28,532 nt of DNA from Bacteroidales bacterium (GCA_020353115.1 CP070687.1:1-28532), one strand, 5' to 3'. Positions 3,048 through 14,267 are shown, numbered from the stretch's first letter. Program-made: numbers and translations. Notes: a model not told the origin generated them from the sequence alone.

Positions 3048-3055
3048 ACTCCTGA

Positions 3056-3377
3056 TTCGTTAATCGTCTTTCAATTTCCGGGAACGATACACGGATCGTA
3101 AATCGTTGTTCGTTAATCGTGAATCAACTGACGATACCGTGCTACGACTCAGAGTAAACCGTACGGTATAAAAAAGTGAAGATTGACTAAACAATGTTGC
3201 GAAACGGATCCGCGCCAGGTCACAGCGACTGGAGGGTTTTGTAATCCATACCCTCATACGGCAATACGCAACAAAGCCGGTATTGAACTTCGTTTATCGG
3301 TTAAAGTAAACAATTATTGACGATTTACGAATAACGCGTCAGGATCCGGGGATCATTACCGGATAACGACCAACGAA
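3056..3377. repeat. Long imperfect inverted-repeat (fold-back) element filling the convergent rprY / plsA-like intergenic gap
   Basis: Nested complementary arms: 3056-3067/3366-3377 (10/12), 3077-3097/3343-3363 (17/21 ungapped), 3098-3106/3320-3328 (9/9), 3113-3119/3298-3304, 3132-3139/3278-3285 and 3195-3201/3267-3273 (7/7). TCGT(T/A)AATCGT occurs three times directly and twice inverted. Confidence 0.7.
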
Positions 3378-3381
3378 AAAG

Positions 3382-6300
3382 CTAATCCCTTATATGCCAG
3401 TACTCGGGTTTATTATAGCCTTTCATTCTGGAGTATTCTTTCGCCTGGTGCATAAAGGCCTGAAGGCGTAATTCTATTGCTGCATCATCCTGTCCGTCAT
3501 ACGCGATACTCTCATAGGGCAGGTTCCCGTGGTCCTGTTTAAACTTATGGGAAACGGATGCCACTACTGTCCCCGGCATACATGTAAACGGGAGGATGTT
3601 CACAATCCCTGATATATTTGTATCGGTTAATCTGACGGAGCTTCCAAGGTTCAGGGCGGGATCGCCATCATAGTGCCTGTGGATATAGGGATCACAATTA
3701 TCCAGCATTTCCCGAACGGTAATATCCCGTTCTTCTTCAAACAGGCCATGAACTGCCTTATGAAGGTTTCTGGCTGAGATATTTTGTGAATAATCCTGTA
3801 TTTTCGATTTTAACAGGCCTTTAAAATCTCCTTTCCAAATGCTATCCCTTGTATACCGGTATGTTGAATAACTGAGCCATTCCGAGAAGGGTGCGATAAA
3901 GGTCTCTGCCCCGAATCTCTCCAGTCTGTCGACCAGGTATGCGCTGCAGAACGGATTATCCCGCATAAAGATCTCACCTACCACTGCAACTACCGGTTTC
4001 CTTTCGCCATTGGTAGTCTGGATGAATTTAAATTTCCGGGCGTATTCACGAAGTACCCGGGTAAGATCTTTCGCTCCCCTTTCCACCGATGAAACCACAG
4101 CAGCCAGGGCTTCCCTGTATACCCGTTCTGTTTCTCCCGGAACCACTTCATACGGTTTCCTTTCCTGTTTCAGCTTTCGGAGCAGATCAACGGCAACAAA
4201 ACCCTTCCATGCTGTAAAACGGAATTTGGTCCCATGCCCCCCGGACAGGTCTTCATACGACGTATCGTTGCTCGGAGAAATGATCTTCACATCCTTATAT
4301 CCAAGGCGGTCAAAAATAATCTTTTGCAATTTGTTGTATTGTCCGAACCTGCAGGGTCCATTATGATCCGGCATGAAGAAGCTGATTTTGGATGGATCCA
4401 CTCCCGGTTCCATCAATTTCTTCAAGAAGCTCCCAGTGGTACAGATCATTGGAAAGCATTCCCGTGCGGAGGTATATTTCCTGCCCAGCTCGAGGGCTTC
4501 CTTATCCTGCATGGGTAATACATCCGATTGCAGACCGCAGCTCCGGACTGCAGCAGCGACGGTATAGGCAGCGTCACACATATAGGGAAAATAGAGCATC
4601 CTGCTGGCTGAAGGGGATGAATCCATTACTCCCGGTCTGTAGATTTCCTTTTGTTTCCCTTTTATCTTTTTTGATCCCCTCAGGCTATCCAGGAAAGCTT
4701 CGTAACGGGTTATCATTCCTGCATCAGCACTGTGTTCATCGATCTCTATTTCAAGATATGGCTTCCCTGCCATCTCCTCATGTACAAAATGGGAAAGGAA
4801 GGAATCGGGACCACAACGAAAATTCCCCATATAGACGGCATGCAATTTTTTATCCCTGGCAACGATTCTTGCCGCTGCAAGGATTTTCTGCCCGTTTGGC
4901 CAGTACATCTGGGGATAATCATTGGTAATCTTTTCACTTCCCAATGGCAGAAAATCAATCGGGATAGGCAATACATCCTGGTTAATCAGTTTTTCAACCA
5001 TGCTCAGGTTAAGGGCAGGATCCCCTGTATTATAAGACCTGCCGAGCAGGACCAATGCTTCCTTATCTTCAGGAAGGTTGTCGAGCACCTCCTGCCCGCG
5101 TAATAACAGCTCTTGTTCAAAAGCAACCTGTACCTTATCTGCCTCCCGTATGGCTTGGACGGTTTTTTTCCTCGATATTCCGAATTTTTCCCGCATATAA
5201 TCCGAGAGTTCCTTATCCAGCACTTTCCCAAAGTACCTGAAATTCAATGTAGGTACCAGCATCTTTCCGATCAGCTTTTCGTCGTTCAGAGCCGCTTTCA
5301 TCATGAAAGGGAAAGTCTGAACCCATGGGCAATTGCAGTTGTTTGTCGGATTATCTGGTGCAGCTTTCGAATTGATAATGAACGGGGTAAATACATGGTC
5401 GACATCTTTGTTCTCAAGAAGGTTCATAATATGACCATGCATCAATTCCACCGGGAAACAGGTTTCTGCAACGATGACTTCCAGAGATTTTTTGATCAGC
5501 TGATTATCCGATTCCGGTGAAATTACGACATGAAATCCCAGTTCACTGAAGAATGTACGCCAGAATGGAAATTGCTGGAAGAAAAGAACCAGTGCCCTGG
5601 GAATACCGATGGTAATCCGTCCGTTTTTAGGTTCTTCGGTATAATCCCCCATGAGCATTGCCATCCTCTCATCGAAAAGGTTGGGTATTCCCTTTCCCTT
5701 TCCTTTCCGTTCATCCAGTTCGTATTTCTCGCATCTGCCGCCATAGTATAGCGGTTTTTTCTCACCTTCTATTCTTACCCTTCTTATTTCGCACTGGTTT
5801 GAACAAGCTTTGCAGGTGAATTTGTCTACTTTATAAGGGATCTTGCTGATATCGAATCCTTTAAACCGTGTCTTCCTGCCGTCTTTTACGGTATCCCTGG
5901 CCAACATGGCAGCCCCGATTGCCCCGGTAACATCGAAATGGGGTGGGACAATAATCTTTTTACCGGTAACTTTCTCAAAGGCAGCAACAACGGCTTTGTT
6001 ATTGGTAACACCTCCCTGAAAAAAGATATGGTTGCCGATTCGCTTTTTCCGGACCACTTTCTGGATATAGTTTTCGACAATAGAATATGCGAGTCCTCCG
6101 ACAAGATTTTCCTTCTCCACCCCTTTCTGCTGTTGGGAATTCAGGTCCGATTCCATGAATACCGTACACCTGTTACCCAATCCTGCCGGTTTTGGAGCTG
6201 CAAGACCGAGTGCTCCGAATTCCTCTATAATATTAATATCCAGTTTTTCCGCTTGTTCTTCAAGAAAGGATCCGGTTCCGGCAGCACAGACTTTATTCAT

Positions 6301-7629
6301 TTCAAAATCAACCACCACACCATTATCAATACTGATAAACTTTGAATCCTGCCCCCCGATCTCGAAAATGGTATCTACCCTTGAATCATAGTCAATGGCG
6401 GCTGTTGCCTGGGCAGTGATCTCATTCTGGATGGTATCGGCTCCGACAAAGTCGCCTGTCAGATACCTTCCCGAACCGGTTGTTCCGGCTCCTCTGACAA
6501 TTACCCTGTCACCCACCTCGTCGCATATCTCCGACATGCCTTTACGTATTGCTTCAAGGGGTTTACTGGCTGTTGGCAGGTATCGTCTTGCAATTACCCG
6601 GTTTTGATCATCGATCAGGACCACATTGGTACTCAATGATCCGACATCCAATCCGAGATATACTTCCACTTTATCCTGGTTATCCGGAATCGGGAATACC
6701 TCTTTATTATAATCGGCATCTGACTCGACAAGAGGTTCATGAACATCTCCCCTGGACTGGGCACTCGTAAGGTATTTTTCCAGAGATTCAAGTCCCCTGA
6801 AGGCACATCCCTCCTCATTTTCCCTGTCAAGTATATGATAAACGGCACCGATCGCTCCCATCGATGCATGGTACTCGGGTATAATCAAATCCTTTTCACC
6901 TGCCTTTAACAGTTCCCTGAATGCCCTTACTACTCCGGCATTCGCAGCAACACCACCCTGGAAGAGTACCGGAAATTCAAATTGTTTTCCTTTCCCCAGC
7001 GCGCTGATAAAATTCCTTGCAACGGCAAAACAGAGTCCGGCAACAATATCATGTACCGGTGTGGCAATCTGCTGCAGGTGGATCATATCGCTTTTTGCAA
7101 ATACGCTGCACCGTCCTGCTATCCTGGGAGGATCCTCTGACCTGAGCGCCAATTCCCCGAATTCCCCGTCAATGGAAACACCGATGCGCTTTGCCTGCTG
7201 GTCAAGAAATGACCCGGTACCGGCAGCACATATGTTGTTTAAGGTAAAATCAGATAACCGGCTGTATCTTTCTTCCTCATTCTCCTGCATTAATATCAGC
7301 TTGGAATCCTCACCTCCCATCTCTATCACCGTCTTAACATGGGGGTATAACTTTGCGACCGACGCGGATTGGGCTATGATCTCGTTTACGAAATACCCGC
7401 CTACAAGGTCTACCGCAAGCTTACCACCCGTACCGGTAAAAGCCAATTTCTGAATTTCATATTCCGAATAATCGGAATAGATCTTCTCCAGCAAATCTTT
7501 CAGCAGATGGAACGGCTTACCATGACAGAAATGATAATGGTTAGCAACGATCCTCCTTTCACCATCCATAATAATGGTATTGATTGAAATAGAACCAATA
7601 TCAAAACCAAGATGAATAACCTTCTTCAT
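3382..7629 (-). CDS. Fused CoA-activase x2 + DUF2229/2-hydroxyacyl-CoA dehydratase-like x2 protein; PlsA(-PlsR)/Ger-type plasmalogen or ether-lipid synthase candidate
   Basis: Two BadF/BcrAD-type ATPase/[4Fe-4S] activase modules: DIGSIS..IEMGGEDSK..NNICAAGTGSFLDQQA..AGRCSVF and DVGSLS..FEIGGQDSK..NKVCAAGTGSFLEEQA..GNRCTVF. Linker CKACSNQC...GGRC. Then IGIPRAL..ETCFP..NCPWV..FRCGPDSF..EIDEH, and RECFP..GPCRFGQY..VVGEIFMR..PFTCMPG..YDGQ. The family call is firm; the product is inferred. Confidence 0.8.
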   Translation of the reverse strand: MKKVIHLGFDIGSISINTIIMDGERRIVANHYHFCHGKPFHLLKDLLEKIYSDYSEYEIQKLAFTGTGGKLAVDLVGGYFVNEIIAQSASVAKLYPHVKTVIEMGGEDSKLILMQENEEERYSRLSDFTLNNICAAGTGSFLDQQAKRIGVSIDGEFGELALRSEDPPRIAGRCSVFAKSDMIHLQQIATPVHDIVAGLCFAVARNFISALGKGKQFEFPVLFQGGVAANAGVVRAFRELLKAGEKDLIIPEYHASMGAIGAVYHILDRENEEGCAFRGLESLEKYLTSAQSRGDVHEPLVESDADYNKEVFPIPDNQDKVEVYLGLDVGSLSTNVVLIDDQNRVIARRYLPTASKPLEAIRKGMSEICDEVGDRVIVRGAGTTGSGRYLTGDFVGADTIQNEITAQATAAIDYDSRVDTIFEIGGQDSKFISIDNGVVVDFEMNKVCAAGTGSFLEEQAEKLDINIIEEFGALGLAAPKPAGLGNRCTVFMESDLNSQQQKGVEKENLVGGLAYSIVENYIQKVVRKKRIGNHIFFQGGVTNNKAVVAAFEKVTGKKIIVPPHFDVTGAIGAAMLARDTVKDGRKTRFKGFDISKIPYKVDKFTCKACSNQCEIRRVRIEGEKKPLYYGGRCEKYELDERKGKGKGIPNLFDERMAMLMGDYTEEPKNGRITIGIPRALVLFFQQFPFWRTFFSELGFHVVISPESDNQLIKKSLEVIVAETCFPVELMHGHIMNLLENKDVDHVFTPFIINSKAAPDNPTNNCNCPWVQTFPFMMKAALNDEKLIGKMLVPTLNFRYFGKVLDKELSDYMREKFGISRKKTVQAIREADKVQVAFEQELLLRGQEVLDNLPEDKEALVLLGRSYNTGDPALNLSMVEKLINQDVLPIPIDFLPLGSEKITNDYPQMYWPNGQKILAAARIVARDKKLHAVYMGNFRCGPDSFLSHFVHEEMAGKPYLEIEIDEHSADAGMITRYEAFLDSLRGSKKIKGKQKEIYRPGVMDSSPSASRMLYFPYMCDAAYTVAAAVRSCGLQSDVLPMQDKEALELGRKYTSARECFPMICTTGSFLKKLMEPGVDPSKISFFMPDHNGPCRFGQYNKLQKIIFDRLGYKDVKIISPSNDTSYEDLSGGHGTKFRFTAWKGFVAVDLLRKLKQERKPYEVVPGETERVYREALAAVVSSVERGAKDLTRVLREYARKFKFIQTTNGERKPVVAVVGEIFMRDNPFCSAYLVDRLERFGAETFIAPFSEWLSYSTYRYTRDSIWKGDFKGLLKSKIQDYSQNISARNLHKAVHGLFEEERDITVREMLDNCDPYIHRHYDGDPALNLGSSVRLTDTNISGIVNILPFTCMPGTVVASVSHKFKQDHGNLPYESIAYDGQDDAAIELRLQAFMHQAKEYSRMKGYNKPEYWHIRD

Positions 7630-7648: not shown

Positions 7649-7656
7649 CAAAGATA
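7649..7656 (-). promoter_or_regulatory. -7 box (TATCTTTG) upstream of the plsA-like gene
   Basis: Plus strand CAAAGATA, 19 nt upstream of the ATG at 7629. Confidence 0.55.
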
Positions 7657-7890: not shown

Positions 7891-9678
7891 TTAGTCCAGT
7901 TTAAGTACGGCAAGGAATGCTTGCTGAGGGACCTCCACGTTGCCAACCTGCCGCATTCGCTTTTTCCCTTTTTTCTGTTTTTCCAGGAGTTTCCTCTTAC
8001 GGGTTATATCCCCACCGTAACATTTGGCCGTCACATCTTTTCGTACTGCTTTAACCGTTTCCCTGGCAATAATTTTTGCACCAATCGCCGCCTGAATTGC
8101 AATATCAAACTGTTGTCGCGGTATCAGGTCTTTAAGCTTCACACATATCCTCCTGCCAAAATCATATGCATTATCCTTATGGATCAGGGTTGACAGGGCA
8201 TCAACCATTTCACCGTTCAGCAAAATATCCAGTCGGACAAGGTTTGCTTTCCGGAAACTTGACTGGTAATAGTCAAATGAAGCATATCCCTTCGAAATGC
8301 TTTTAAGTTTATCATAAAAGTCGAATACGATTTCGGCGAGGGGCATTTCAAATGTAACCTCTACCCTGTCGCTTGTCAGGTAGACCTGGTTTTTCAAGGT
8401 GCCTCTTTTGTCAATGCATAATTTCATAACGGAACCGATGTATTCCGATCTTGATATGATCGAAGCGGTAATATATGGTTCCTCGATACAATCGATTGTA
8501 GTGATTTCCGGCAATCCCGAAGGATTATGAACCTCGATAATCTCTTTCTTCTTTGTATATACCTTGAAGGATACATTAGGAACCGTTGTGATTACATTCA
8601 TGGCAAATTCCCGGTCAAGACGTTCCTGGATAATTTCCATATGAAGCAAGCCAAGGAATCCGCAACGAAATCCGAATCCGAGCGCTGCCGAAGATTCCGG
8701 CTCATAGGACAGCGATGCATCGTTTAGCTGCAGCTTCTCCATCGCAACGCGCAGCTCTTCATAATCATCAGCATCTACCGGGTAAATACCGGCAAAAACC
8801 ATAGGTTTAACATCCTTGAAACCCTCAATAGCTTTCTCACAGGGATTTACAACATGCGTAATGGTATCCCCCACTTTTACCTCTTTTGAACTTTTAATCC
8901 CCGAAATGATATATCCAACATCGCCCGTCCTGAGAACATTCCTGGGTTCCATTTTTAATTTCAAAACACCGATTTCATCTGCATGATATTGTTTACCGGT
9001 TGCGACAAATTTAACATGGTCGTCGGTTCGTATCTCTCCATTAACTACTTTAAAATAAACATGTATGCCCCGAAACGAATTAAATACCGAGTCAAAGATC
9101 AGGGCTTGCAGCGGAGCATGGGGATCACCCTGTGGTGGAGGGATTTTTACTATGATCTCCTCCAAAATGCGGTCTACACCCAAACCCGTCTTTCCGCTTG
9201 CTTCTATAATATCCTTCCGTTCACACCCCAACAGATCAACTATCTGGTCCTTGACCTCTTCAGGCATCGCAGCTTCAAGATCCATTTTGTTAAGAACAGG
9301 TATTACTTCAAGATCGTTATCGATCGCCTGATAAAGATTGGAAATGGTCTGGGCCTGGATCCCCTGGGTGGCATCAACAACCAGCAGCGCTCCTTCACAT
9401 GCAACAATGGATCGCGATACTTCATAGGAGAAATCCACATGCCCTGGGGTATCTATAAGGTTCAGGAAGTAACGCTCATTACCCGATCTGTACTCCATCT
9501 GGATGGCATGACTCTTTATGGTTATACCCCTTTCCCTCTCCAGTTCCATACTGTCAAGAACCTGATCCTTAAAATCCCTTTCAGAAAGCGTATTCGTTTT
9601 CAATAGCATTCTGTCAGCCAGAGTACTTTTACCGTGATCTATATGTGCAATAATGCAAAAATTCCTAATGTTCTTCAT
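7891..9678 (-). CDS. lepA: Elongation factor 4 (LepA)
   Basis: [55 protein letters not shown], and C-terminal [23 protein letters not shown]. Confidence 0.98.
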
Positions 9679-12074: not shown

Positions 12075-14267
12075 TTATTCCATCACAATTTTTTTGTGAT
12101 ATTCCCTGTCCCCGGTTCGTATTTTTAATATGTAAATTCCTCCCGGCAGGTTCAGGTTGTCAAGATAGATCCGGTTGATACCTTCCGTAAAAAAGGTACG
12201 TTTCCCGCAGACAAGTTTGCCTGTGAGGTTGTACAATTGAATATCCGCTGCAGCAAGACCGGGTTGATAAAATTCAACAGTTATCCGGTCGTTTCCGGGA
12301 TTTGAAAAAATTCGGACCGGATCATCTGTAATTACGGGTACGGAAACCGGTGTGTATGTAAATTCAAATGTTGCATTATCCACAGCATTCCCACTTCGAT
12401 CCTCTACCAGATTAACCGTAAGAATATGGGTTCCTCCCTGCATGCCTGCAATACTAAGGCATACACGAGTATCTTCATATAAATAAACTCCGGTGACGGA
12501 AATGTTGTGGTTCAGTGTATAGTTCGAGGGATTCTGGGAAGAAACGGAATCCAGTTTTTCATTAAAATCAACCATTAAACAGTTGGAATCCAGCACCTGT
12601 ACATTCATGATCTGTGGCGGACTGGTATCCTCCACCTCCCCGAAATCATTCATGTCTCTTACAAGGATCTGGTAATCGTTGCCATACTGGCTGACAATGC
12701 CGGTAATATTCACCACTCCCGACGGAACTTCATGGCCTGCCAGCCGTGAATCATGGCGTGAAAAAAGCACCATGTTTCCTGTACCATCGCTAAATGAAAA
12801 GGTATTATCGCTATTATCAATAACGGTACCTCCATCCGCAAACTGGCAGTTACCGATCTTTACCAGCATTCCTTCGTATTCTTCTCCGATCTGGGAGATC
12901 GTAAGATCAAGTGTCTCGGGTTCCCTGCTGATGGAATAAGAATAGAGATAACTTATATTTTGAAGTTCTGTAAGATTTTGATATTCTGTTACATCGCCGG
13001 TAACAACGATACTGTCTCCAATTCTTCCCCTGCTGTTCGATCCGAATATACATAATCCGCTATACGGATCATCCGAATCCTGGATATAGAAAGTATTATC
13101 GAAGTTACCGGTAACGATTCCGGCAGTTGTTACCGTTTGGGAAAGGAGCGGGCTTGAATTTCCCGTACCCTGTATCTCCTTTATGCCTGTAATCTGTGCA
13201 GGGGTAATACCGGATGGGAACAGATGGGTTCCCCTCTGCACTCCGGTAGTGGTTCCGTTTGTGGCCACTATCTTGAAATGAAGGTATTCACCCTGGCTGA
13301 ATCCGGAAAGGTCCATTTCTCCCGAATAAATATTCCCGGAGGATACCATCTCCACATGGTTTGTTTCCGCATCATGGGTGTTACCCCAATAGAGTGATAC
13401 ACTGTTTAAAGCCTGTCCGGATGATATACTGGCAGTAATTGTTGCATTATGGCCTGCCTCCGGATAGAACGGATTCATAGACATACTGTCGATCGTTATT
13501 CCGGAAGGTATTCCTCCATCCCAAATCAGATCAGCATATTCCGGGTGGTCGATGAAAGGATTCCTGTTATGCTGTGATTGAAAAATCCGTTCATTCCTTC
13601 TCCGTTCGAAATCCGATGGCGGGAAATTCCTGTTCCACTGGATCAGGGTGGATAATTTCCCATGCCGGGGAGTTCCTGCAGTGTTAACCTCATCCACGAC
13701 CTCAAGATCCATTTCATCCACACTCCCTTCATACCTGACAGCCATATAAAAAATAATCCTTGCTACCTGCCCCTTAACGGCATCGGCGGGTTCAAACCGG
13801 CTAACCGTATAATAGGTGCCGGGTGCCTCATCTATTTCTGTTCCTGTAGACGAGCAATTATCAAAATCGAGATTACTTCTTTGCAGGTTAACAGATGCAT
13901 CGGCCGGCCTGAGGTTGAATGCGTCACCATCCATCGGCCGGATTCCTTCAAAATTTCCATGCGATTTTGCCCAGACATGTTCCCGGTTTATATCATCTTC
14001 TCCCGTGCCATAGGTTTCCGCATTCTGGGAACGCTGTGTATAAAAAAGTATTACATTATTTTCGTCATTCGGGTCAGCATCGGAATAATTGATAATATAT
14101 TTGGCCTGTGAATAGGAAAAGTCAATATGTCCTTTAATGATATCATTTAAAACGGATTTCAGATCACTACCTGTCTTACTGCCCGTACCGTTATAGTATC
14201 CGGCAGGTTGTGCCATACTTAATAATACAGGCAGCAAAAAAAATATGGAGATACCGGTTTTTTTCAT
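12075..14267 (-). CDS. Secreted endonuclease I-family nuclease with OB-fold/Ig-like modules and T9SS C-terminal sorting domain
   Basis: Signal peptide ..LLSMA-QP. NREHVWAKSHG, NLRPADASVN..RSN, KGQVARIIFYMAVRY, RNERIFQSQHNRNPFIDHP. OB-like modules FYIQD..YSGL and YEGMLVKI. C-terminal IQLYNLTGKLV...LPGGIYILKI..KKIVME. Confidence 0.9.
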   Translation of the reverse strand: MKKTGISIFFLLPVLLSMAQPAGYYNGTGSKTGSDLKSVLNDIIKGHIDFSYSQAKYIINYSDADPNDENNVILFYTQRSQNAETYGTGEDDINREHVWAKSHGNFEGIRPMDGDAFNLRPADASVNLQRSNLDFDNCSSTGTEIDEAPGTYYTVSRFEPADAVKGQVARIIFYMAVRYEGSVDEMDLEVVDEVNTAGTPRHGKLSTLIQWNRNFPPSDFERRRNERIFQSQHNRNPFIDHPEYADLIWDGGIPSGITIDSMSMNPFYPEAGHNATITASISSGQALNSVSLYWGNTHDAETNHVEMVSSGNIYSGEMDLSGFSQGEYLHFKIVATNGTTTGVQRGTHLFPSGITPAQITGIKEIQGTGNSSPLLSQTVTTAGIVTGNFDNTFYIQDSDDPYSGLCIFGSNSRGRIGDSIVVTGDVTEYQNLTELQNISYLYSYSISREPETLDLTISQIGEEYEGMLVKIGNCQFADGGTVIDNSDNTFSFSDGTGNMVLFSRHDSRLAGHEVPSGVVNITGIVSQYGNDYQILVRDMNDFGEVEDTSPPQIMNVQVLDSNCLMVDFNEKLDSVSSQNPSNYTLNHNISVTGVYLYEDTRVCLSIAGMQGGTHILTVNLVEDRSGNAVDNATFEFTYTPVSVPVITDDPVRIFSNPGNDRITVEFYQPGLAAADIQLYNLTGKLVCGKRTFFTEGINRIYLDNLNLPGGIYILKIRTGDREYHKKIVME

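Follow-up and report, generated by a model that had tools for sequence, protein, structure and literature searches.

The window analysed here, a stretch of 28,532 nt from an uncultured sediment Bacteroidales bacterium (GCA_020353115.1 CP070687.1:1-28532), carries a gene whose product probably functions as a self-sufficient iron-sulfur reductase of the PlsA/PlsR-Ger family, driven by ATP and making ether lipids from ester phospholipids; we give this reading a probability of roughly 0.6. Enzymes of the PlsA/Ger family are oxygen-sensitive and convert membrane ester lipids into ether lipids. If active, the protein would allow this conversion of ester phospholipids to proceed without oxygen in an uncultured sediment Bacteroidales bacterium, which bears on who makes the plasmalogens and alkyl glycerol ethers that anoxic sediments contain.

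The ORF list and translation reveal a single ORF of 1415 aa with an ATG start at 3382..7629 on the minus strand. The original prediction had described one chain of this length, which is correct, and had overlooked its location on the minus strand; reading this interval on the plus strand runs into stops throughout. The gene and its parts are as follows.

3382..7629, minus strand: whole ORF (P0001), predicted fused PlsA/PlsR(Ger)-type enzyme (ORF list and translation, alignment to C. perfringens PlsA)
7649..7656, minus strand: -7 promoter-like motif TATCTTTG, Bacteroidota-type (sequence and motif scan)
6841..7617, minus strand: activase module 1, BcrAD/BadFG ATPase, about aa 5-263 (PF01869, TIGR02261 stretch 5-263, HadI match)
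5896..6663, minus strand: activase module 2, about aa 323-578 (PF01869 best stretch 325-577, TIGR00241 324-576, HgdC match)
5731..5814, minus strand: four-Cys linker CxxCxxxC...C, with C606, C609, C613 and C633 (motif positions, conservation)
4951..5613, minus strand: core of reductase/dehydratase-like module 1, DUF2229, aa 673-893 (PF09989, E 2e-57)
3385..4617, minus strand: reductase/dehydratase-like module 2, PlsR-equivalent, about aa 1005-1415 (BLASTP to PlsR, hhalign)

The N-terminal activase modules are recognized by Pfam, with two matches to BcrAD_BadFG (PF01869, E 1e-73), and by NCBIfam, with two matches to TIGR00241 (acyl-CoA dehydratase activase). In a PDB sequence search, the first aligns with HadI (4eht; residues 7-273, E 9e-31) and the second with HgdC (1hux; residues 325-578, E 6.5e-31). 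A motif scan places CAAGTG at residues 134 and 448 and RCxVF at 173 and 487, resulting in the cluster cysteines C134 (CAAGTG) and C174 (RCSVF) in activase 1, and C448 (CAAGTG) and C488 (RCTVF) in activase 2. The linker reads CKACSNQC at 606-613, followed by C633, and is presumably a metal site (Fe-S or Zn) with these cysteines as its likely ligands. Downstream, the whole of reductase/dehydratase-like module 1 spans about aa 640-990 and contains TCFP (723), NCP (766) and CGPD (939); its DUF2229 domain (PF09989, aa 673-893, E 2e-57) was recovered at the same position by genome search. Module 2 contains ECFP (1057), GPCRFG (1091) and TCMP (1349), together with a weak DUF2229 match where PlsR shows one too. 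Comparison by hhalign makes module 2 a homologue of module 1 (96.5%, E 8e-10, 305 columns), with cysteines 724/1058, 767/1093 and 939/1350 forming aligned pairs. In an AF2 model of the C-terminal half (pLDDT 91, pTM 0.90), model residues 44-392 match DCCP (6eno, Z 13.8), MbdON (9g87, Z 12.5) and HadB (3o3o, Z 12.2); a PDB sequence search with the window protein returned no PlsA or Ger structure.

Conservation was assessed in an alignment of 51 diverse homologues (21-71% identical), in which C609, C613, C633, C724, C767, C939, C1058, C1093 and C1350 are invariant and C606 is conserved in at least 90%. All Cys motifs of the original prediction are present in the protein, and the invariance of nine of their cysteines across such divergent homologues places the motif set beyond chance.

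The reference for this architecture is the anaerobic plasmalogen synthase PlsA/PlsR of Clostridium perfringens (CPE1194/CPE1195; Jackson et al. 2021, as relayed in PMC9702350 and PMC12838417). The window protein aligns with C. perfringens PlsA (P0470) at 31% identity (E 2e-135) over 1011 columns, covering 99% of PlsA. This alignment is collinear from end to end with every Cys motif aligned: C134/C174 and C448/C488 fall on their counterparts, and the linker on CGLCTNRC...GNRC. The last module (residues 1024-1357) matches Clostridium PlsR P0437 by BLASTP (E 1e-12, 21% identity), a reference from a Clostridium sp. whose PlsA is 94-96% identical to the named C. perfringens PlsA; the Clostridium references were located via a C. 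perfringens primer, with matches in two Clostridium sp. genomes. Published similarity screens apply either E <= 1e-30 with identity > 30% or E <= 1e-50 with coverage >= 30%, and the match to C. perfringens PlsA lies within these thresholds. The family features are likewise present: two activase modules with Cys pairs, the linker and DUF2229 module, and a second, PlsR-equivalent module. The four-module PlsA/PlsR architecture that had been proposed is therefore borne out by the alignments, and, as far as sequence can tell, assignment of the protein to the PlsA/Ger family is sound. Public annotation relies on generic names (e.g. 'acyl-CoA dehydratase activase'), the activator-type naming that the original prediction anticipated, and this name conceals a likely lipid role.

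From the observed architecture, conserved ligands, fold and homology to validated PlsA/PlsR, we infer the lipid substrate, electron donor, cluster types and product as follows. The two fused activase modules would form an intramolecular pseudo-dimer that holds one bridging [4Fe-4S] cluster via C134/C174 and C448/C488, and this cluster may be reduced by ferredoxin or flavodoxin. The genome encodes PFOR, a source of reduced ferredoxin. ATP hydrolysis would push a low-potential electron into Fe-S centres of the two DUF2229-type modules, with three invariant cysteines each, where reduction and dehydration would turn the acyl ester at sn-1 of a membrane glycerophospholipid into a vinyl ether (plasmalogen, PlsA-like). 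Alternatively, further reduction might yield a saturated alkyl ether (Ger-like). Sequence cannot separate the vinyl-ether from the alkyl-ether product, a caveat already attached to the prediction and in agreement with the literature (PMC11868695, PMC13274423). In the literature covered here, all members with the fused architecture that were put to experiment make ether lipids (PMC13159169, PMC12838417). The original prediction had also overlooked a heme-copper oxidase (COX1) encoded in the genome; the organism is therefore not clearly a strict anaerobe.

The gene is flanked by lepA, a histidine kinase/response regulator pair, a DUF4412 protein and an aminotransferase. The motif TATCTTTG lies 20 nt upstream of the ATG, inside the 261-nt gap after lepA. 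Shuffles contain the -7 motif 22.7 +/- 4.4 times and the window 21 times, a frequency equal to chance, so that the motif by itself is no evidence of a promoter. Of the gene's own -7 promoter as predicted, the motif is real and its value as promoter evidence is lost; that it serves as the promoter of this gene is only plausible. No hgdAB-type, fldBC-type or CoA-transferase genes occur within about 10 kb, in line with the claim that none are adjacent. Across 50 related loci the gene is a stand-alone unit, as expected if the enzyme acts on bulk membrane lipid, and at 14 of them a ferredoxin-domain gene lies directly upstream. Among these loci no lipid gene recurs as a conserved neighbour, which counts against the ether-lipid reading.

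Orthologues of equal length (60-85% identity) are found in at least 80 genomes. The window's type is also carried by Maribellus strains that are in culture and facultatively anaerobic, among them M. mangrovi FJH33 and M. sediminis Y2-1-60, and the product could be measured there. Nearest relatives outside Bacteroidota belong to Fibrobacterota, Zixibacteria, Ignavibacteria, Desulfobacterota, Planctomycetota and Nitrospirota; with a Fibrobacterota relative as query, the best matches were only 47% identical, and Fibrobacter succinogenes was not among the results. The contig matched by a BT2156 primer of B. thetaiotaomicron (an Anaerolineae MAG without a DUF2229 gene) gave short, weak matches in 151 Bacteroidales genomes. 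For carriers of the window's clade, we found no ether-lipid data in the literature. A maximum-likelihood tree of 120 sequences (FastTree, IQ-TREE; SH-aLRT), with Clostridium PlsA/PlsR as its only validated references, does not part the window protein from these references at the deepest split (SH-aLRT 89 for their shared side; other side 100). Within that side, the window clade is a different subclade from Clostridium PlsA/R, far away and with long branches between them.

The same genome encodes a second full-length paralogue at genome position 1,888,315-1,892,511, which had also been overlooked; it is 29% identical and comes from another deep clade. The two types are each found repeatedly in Bacteroidales and co-occur in several other members of the order, so Bacteroidales have two distinct enzyme types, often together. 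New here are the second paralogue, the recurrence of both types in Bacteroidales, and the presence of the window's type in cultured Maribellus. Given this second, deeply divergent paralogue, any ether lipids of the organism need not come solely or mainly from the window gene. We speculate, as an improbable scenario, that the paralogues split the work, for example between vinyl and saturated alkyl ethers or between sn-1 and sn-2. Sediment Bacteroidales would in that case produce mixed or di-ether lipids, and the non-isoprenoid alkyl glycerol ethers of anoxic sediments would have a source so far unappreciated.

That paralogue also feeds the alternative we take most seriously, namely that the window's clade is a distinct functional branch of the BBD superfamily, using the same ATP-driven Fe-S machinery on a different substrate, with ether lipids, if any, made via the other paralogue. 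The long branches and the low identities (only 31% to PlsA and 21% to PlsR) leave room for such a shift, as do the top structural matches, which include DCCP, a small-molecule reductase, and the counts in sampled Bacteroidales families, where the second type is about three times commoner (about 28 versus about 9 of 151 genomes searched). Moreover, according to the supplement of 10.1101/2022.04.21.487849, homologues from K. stuttgartensis and T. geofontis yielded no ether lipid on expression, so homology is no guarantee of activity. However, the window protein retains all PlsA/PlsR modules and ligands in unchanged order, and validated PlsA matches it more strongly than it does the other paralogue (E 3e-133 versus 1.5e-77). 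Its neighbours point to no alternative substrate, and the same supplement counts proteins of Bacteroidetes, Fibrobacteres, Zixibacteria and Ignavibacteriae as Ger homologues. We consider a different substrate unlikely.

A 2-hydroxyacyl-CoA dehydratase system for amino-acid fermentation, with the activator fused to the dehydratase, is what the public 'activase' names suggest, and the activase matches to HgdC and HadI (E 1e-30) and the HadB fold of module 1 agree with it. Yet PF06050 (HGD-D) finds no match even at E 1, CoA-transferase and 2-hydroxyacid pathway genes are absent nearby, and structural identity to HadB is only 13%; we rejected this reading as very improbable. Class I benzoyl-CoA reductase (BcrABCD/BzdNOPQ) was rejected as well, since the subunit equivalogs score far under the NCBIfam cut-offs (TIGR02259, 158 bits versus 578; TIGR03192, 119 versus 380; TIGR02261, 108 versus 313), a result that also speaks against the dehydratase. 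Least probable of all is an inactive or decaying copy: no RNA run contains the gene (the matching runs are all DNA, from a sediment metagenome), but the ORF is intact, the ligand cysteines are all invariant, and equal-length orthologues persist across the genomes counted above.

The preferred reading, an anaerobic ether-lipid enzyme, adds to a known picture in Bacteroidota. PlsA/R homologues occur in about 15% of sequenced Bacteroidota, as PMC10191378 states in citing Jackson 2021; Ger homologues are listed for Bacteroidetes in the supplement of 10.1101/2022.04.21.487849 and were found in 9/273 Black Sea Bacteroidota MAGs (PMC11868695); and PE plasmalogens have been measured in B. thetaiotaomicron (PMC10056535). 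The suggestion that the organism represents an unrecognised ether-lipid source does not hold against these reports. With both the family and its occurrence in Bacteroidota published, the gene is chiefly one more data point and a fairly ordinary find, except for the very different second copy.

Among known systems, HadBC/HadI, HgdAB/HgdC, class I benzoyl-CoA reductases and DCCP/DCCP-R belong to the same superfamily as the window protein and share its 'archerase' logic, in which an activase that depends on ATP and carries a bridging [4Fe-4S] cluster supplies an Fe-S catalytic pair; the likeness extends to the fold (Z 12-14) and the activase matches (E 1e-30). In these systems the subunits are separate and the substrates are CoA thioesters or small molecules, whereas the window protein has everything fused, lacks CoA-pathway neighbours, and is only 13% identical to HadB. 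The glycerol ester reductase Ger (Thermotoga maritima Tmari_0479, Desulfatibacillum alkenivorans SHJ90043; PMC13159169) produces saturated 1-O-alkyl ethers and, as described, resembles the window protein in having two activase modules and DUF2229 (BBD...) at about 150 kDa. Unlike Ger, the window protein shows no HGD-D pieces by Pfam; the phyla of its nearest non-Bacteroidota relatives are listed as carriers of Ger homologues in the supplement of 10.1101/2022.04.21.487849. With C. perfringens PlsA/PlsR it shares the order activase, activase, 4-Cys linker, DUF2229 module and second related module, although there the system is two genes and here one chain of low identity in a different subclade. 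Fused, single-gene PlsA is known from Enterococcus faecalis (EF1327, 4248 bp) and also Lactococcus cremoris (PMC12838417). These two proteins are 48-55% identical to C. perfringens PlsA (PMC12838417), far closer than the window protein (31%), but the E. faecalis enzyme has the same one-chain form and an identical gene length (4248 bp, 1415 aa), and its host is not a strict anaerobe; nor, with its COX1, is the organism of the window clearly one.

The 1415-aa protein is soundly placed in the PlsA/Ger family, and its best-supported function would be the conversion of lipid esters to ethers, to which we give a probability of about 0.6, judging from homology at ~30% identity. The features on which this reading draws are as follows (residues are those of the protein).

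3382..7629, minus strand: fused PlsA/Ger-type open reading frame, 1415 aa, ATG start
Residues 134 and 448: CAAGTG
Residues 173 and 487: RCxVF
Residues 606-613: CKACSNQC, plus C633
Residues 723, 766 and 939: TCFP, NCP and CGPD, in module 1, the first of the two C-terminal reductase/dehydratase-like modules
Residues 1057, 1091 and 1349: ECFP, GPCRFG and TCMP, in module 2, the PlsR-equivalent
7891-9678, minus strand, same as the gene: lepA, upstream across a 261-nt gap
3048-3381: convergent gap of 334 nt, downstream
Plus strand, beyond the downstream gap: histidine kinase/response regulator pair

Read on the plus strand, 3382..7629 is broken up by many stops. Every motif listed in the original prediction was found, and its two activase modules in one chain are borne out by two BcrAD_BadFG ATPase stretches (Pfam) and a twofold acyl-CoA dehydratase activase domain (NCBIfam). 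Benzoyl-CoA reductase subunit equivalog models (NCBIfam) scored far under their cut-offs. When the C-terminal 816 residues were aligned with 50 homologues (21-71% identical), C609, C613, C633, C724, C767, C939, C1058, C1093 and C1350 were invariant, and C606 was conserved in at least 90%.

Reference sequences were located by matching the primers that Table S6 of PMC12838417 gives for cloning; these led to Clostridium sp. LIBA-8841 and its genes of 975 and 420 aa. The 975-aa protein shares 94-96% identity with many proteins that bear the name Clostridium perfringens. In its alignment with the window's protein, C. perfringens PlsA (our entry P0470) covers residues 7-983, 31% identical and with all Cys motifs in register (E 2e-135), and Clostridium PlsR aligns with residues 1024-1357 at 21% identity (E 1e-12). 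The activase modules also match HgdC, HadI, MbdQ/P and DCCP-R (PDB sequences; E 6.5e-31 to 4.7e-18). At L085:531-4729 and L169:2151-6410, LIBA-8841 carries a split plsA-plsR operon and also a fused 1419-aa paralogue, the sister of the operon's product in our tree.

Pfam recognises only module 1, as DUF2229 (residues 673-893), while module 2 gives a sub-threshold DUF2229 match in the same relative place as in clostridial PlsR. Profile-profile comparison relates the two modules (96.5% probability, E 8e-10, 305 columns), and pairs the three Cys of one with the three Cys of the other. For a confident AlphaFold2 model built from a 51-row alignment (pLDDT 91.0, pTM 0.90), the sole significant Foldseek matches in the PDB, which holds no PlsA or Ger structure, were the double-cubane cluster protein, 3-methylbenzoyl-CoA reductase MbdON and 2-hydroxyisocaproyl-CoA dehydratase. 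These reach Z 12.2-13.8 over model residues 44-392, corresponding to module 1, and the next-ranked structures are unrelated folds with Z of 7 or less (VIA-align).

More than 7,900 database proteins match the window's protein. The best 120 of these are 69-85% identical, ~1,410-1,430 aa long and from Bacteroidota/Bacteroidales MAGs, and bear the names 'acyl-CoA dehydratase activase' or 'CoA activase', the generic annotation that had been anticipated. The best 80 loci from species-representative genomes are nearly all from uncultured Bacteroidales, with a few from Spirochaetota-labelled MAGs. A maximum-likelihood tree (IQ-TREE -fast, LG+G4, 120 sequences, 1295 columns) was built from the full-length members among the best 150 50%-cluster representatives plus named loci, excluding partial sequences. 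Rooted at its midpoint, it has two groups: one (SH-aLRT 100) holds the second paralogue type described below, and the other (SH-aLRT 89) joins Clostridium PlsA/PlsR and the fused 1419-aa sister to a large clade from environmental anaerobes. The window's Bacteroidales clade lies within this large clade, with a Fibrobacterota protein as its sister (SH-aLRT 100), followed by Nitrospinota, KSB1, Zixibacteria/Ignavibacteria, Desulfobacterota, Planctomycetota and Brocadiia, groups for which the supplement of 10.1101/2022.04.21.487849 reports Ger homologues. As validated sequences of Ger, E. faecalis and B. thetaiotaomicron are absent from it, the tree does not separate 'PlsA' from 'Ger'. Two cultured carriers, Maribellus mangrovi FJH33 and M. 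sediminis Y2-1-60, fall within the window's clade. In Spirochaetota/Spirochaetaceae-labelled MAGs (L014, L035, L052, L053 and L054), the orthologues share 62-71% identity with the window's protein, and that of L053 nests within the Bacteroidales clade, which points to gene transfer or mis-binning. Sediment metagenome runs contain the gene's DNA; no RNA runs containing it were found.

In the 50 orthologous loci that include flanking sequence, at most 14 share any one neighbour, so that the gene is a stand-alone unit. An upstream same-strand 4Fe-4S ferredoxin-domain protein (14/50), a downstream 2-hydroxyacid-dehydrogenase-like gene (14/50) and a Crp/FNR-type regulator (13/50) recur most, and lepA is found in only 4/50. 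The ferredoxin gene is a lineage-specific neighbour, and its product a plausible electron donor. No HGD-D dehydratase or CoA-transferase gene lies among the neighbours of the window's gene, in keeping with the original prediction. Its proposed own -7 promoter fared less well: a TAnnTTTG motif does lie 20 nt before the ATG, but its frequency in the window is not above that in shuffles. The 334-nt gap, next to the response-regulator gene, holds several ACGATT(A/T)ACGA-like copies in both orientations and inverted arms (3048-3068/3319-3339, 81% complementary; 3096-3106/3320-3330, 100%); this could be a regulator site set or a structured element. Elsewhere in the window, 12075-14267 (minus strand) encodes a candidate secreted nuclease of 730 aa that combines Endonuclease I and DUF5689 with a C-terminal sorting domain for type IX secretion.

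Searching the window's own genome, a single 2.94-Mb contig, with DUF2229 revealed another full-length family member:

G000:C1:1888315-1892511 (L003:8316-12512), plus strand: second paralogue, 1398 aa, same architecture

This protein is 29% identical to the window's over the full length and lies farther from PlsA (25% identity, E 1.5e-77). It is flanked by genes for a beta-lactamase-fold and an HlyIII-family protein, and has many Bacteroidales orthologues (57-67% identical). The public MAG 'Bacteroides sp. SM23_62_1' is present in the match lists of both types. In an even sample of 151 genomes from the whole of the Bacteroidales, 37 have a match: ~9 have the window's type (54-71% identity) and ~28 the second (27-31% identity to the window's protein), making the latter ~3 times commoner among the sampled families. 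Both types co-occur in at least four genomes other than the window's own.

PlsA/PlsR convert diacyl lipids to plasmalogens (PMC9702350), and E. coli has served as the host for expressing the fused single-gene forms of E. faecalis, L. cremoris and B. longum subsp. suis (PMC12838417). The homologues of T. maritima and D. alkenivorans, named Ger, produce 1-O-alkyl glycerols (PMC13159169), while those of K. stuttgartensis and T. geofontis gave no product, according to the supplement of 10.1101/2022.04.21.487849. Sequence does not tell Ger from PlsA (PMC11868695, PMC13274423), in agreement with the earlier caveat on vinyl versus alkyl ethers. The suggestion that Bacteroidota are an unrecognised ether-lipid source fails, because homologues are already published for ~15% of sequenced Bacteroidota genomes (PlsA/R; PMC10191378) and for 9/273 Black Sea Bacteroidota MAGs (Ger; PMC11868695), and, within Bacteroides, measured PE plasmalogens are reported for B. 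thetaiotaomicron but for none of three other species (PMC10056535). Bacteroidetes are also listed among Ger carriers in the same supplement. With the enzyme family and its presence in Bacteroidota already published, what is fresh is only that a second paralogue type shares the genome and that cultured carriers exist. A 22-nt qPCR primer for B. thetaiotaomicron BT2156 returned no B. thetaiotaomicron record and matched exactly in L086 (JAKLPV010000092.1, from an 'Anaerolineae bacterium' MAG), a contig that may be foreign to its bin.

The window's genome has genes for heme-copper oxidase subunit I, full-length and of the COX1 family (E 1e-150; G000:C1:2450891-2452222, minus strand), and for a 1177-aa pyruvate:ferredoxin oxidoreductase (PFOR), and its host is probably facultative or microaerotolerant, not a strict anaerobe. 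This likely oxygen tolerance resembles that of the Maribellus carriers and of facultative PlsA hosts. The fused E. faecalis gene (4248 bp; PMC12838417) has the same length as the window's reading frame, and the paralogue pair parallels the Bacillota with two homologues, for which one has been hypothesised to be Ger and the other PlsA (PMC13274423).
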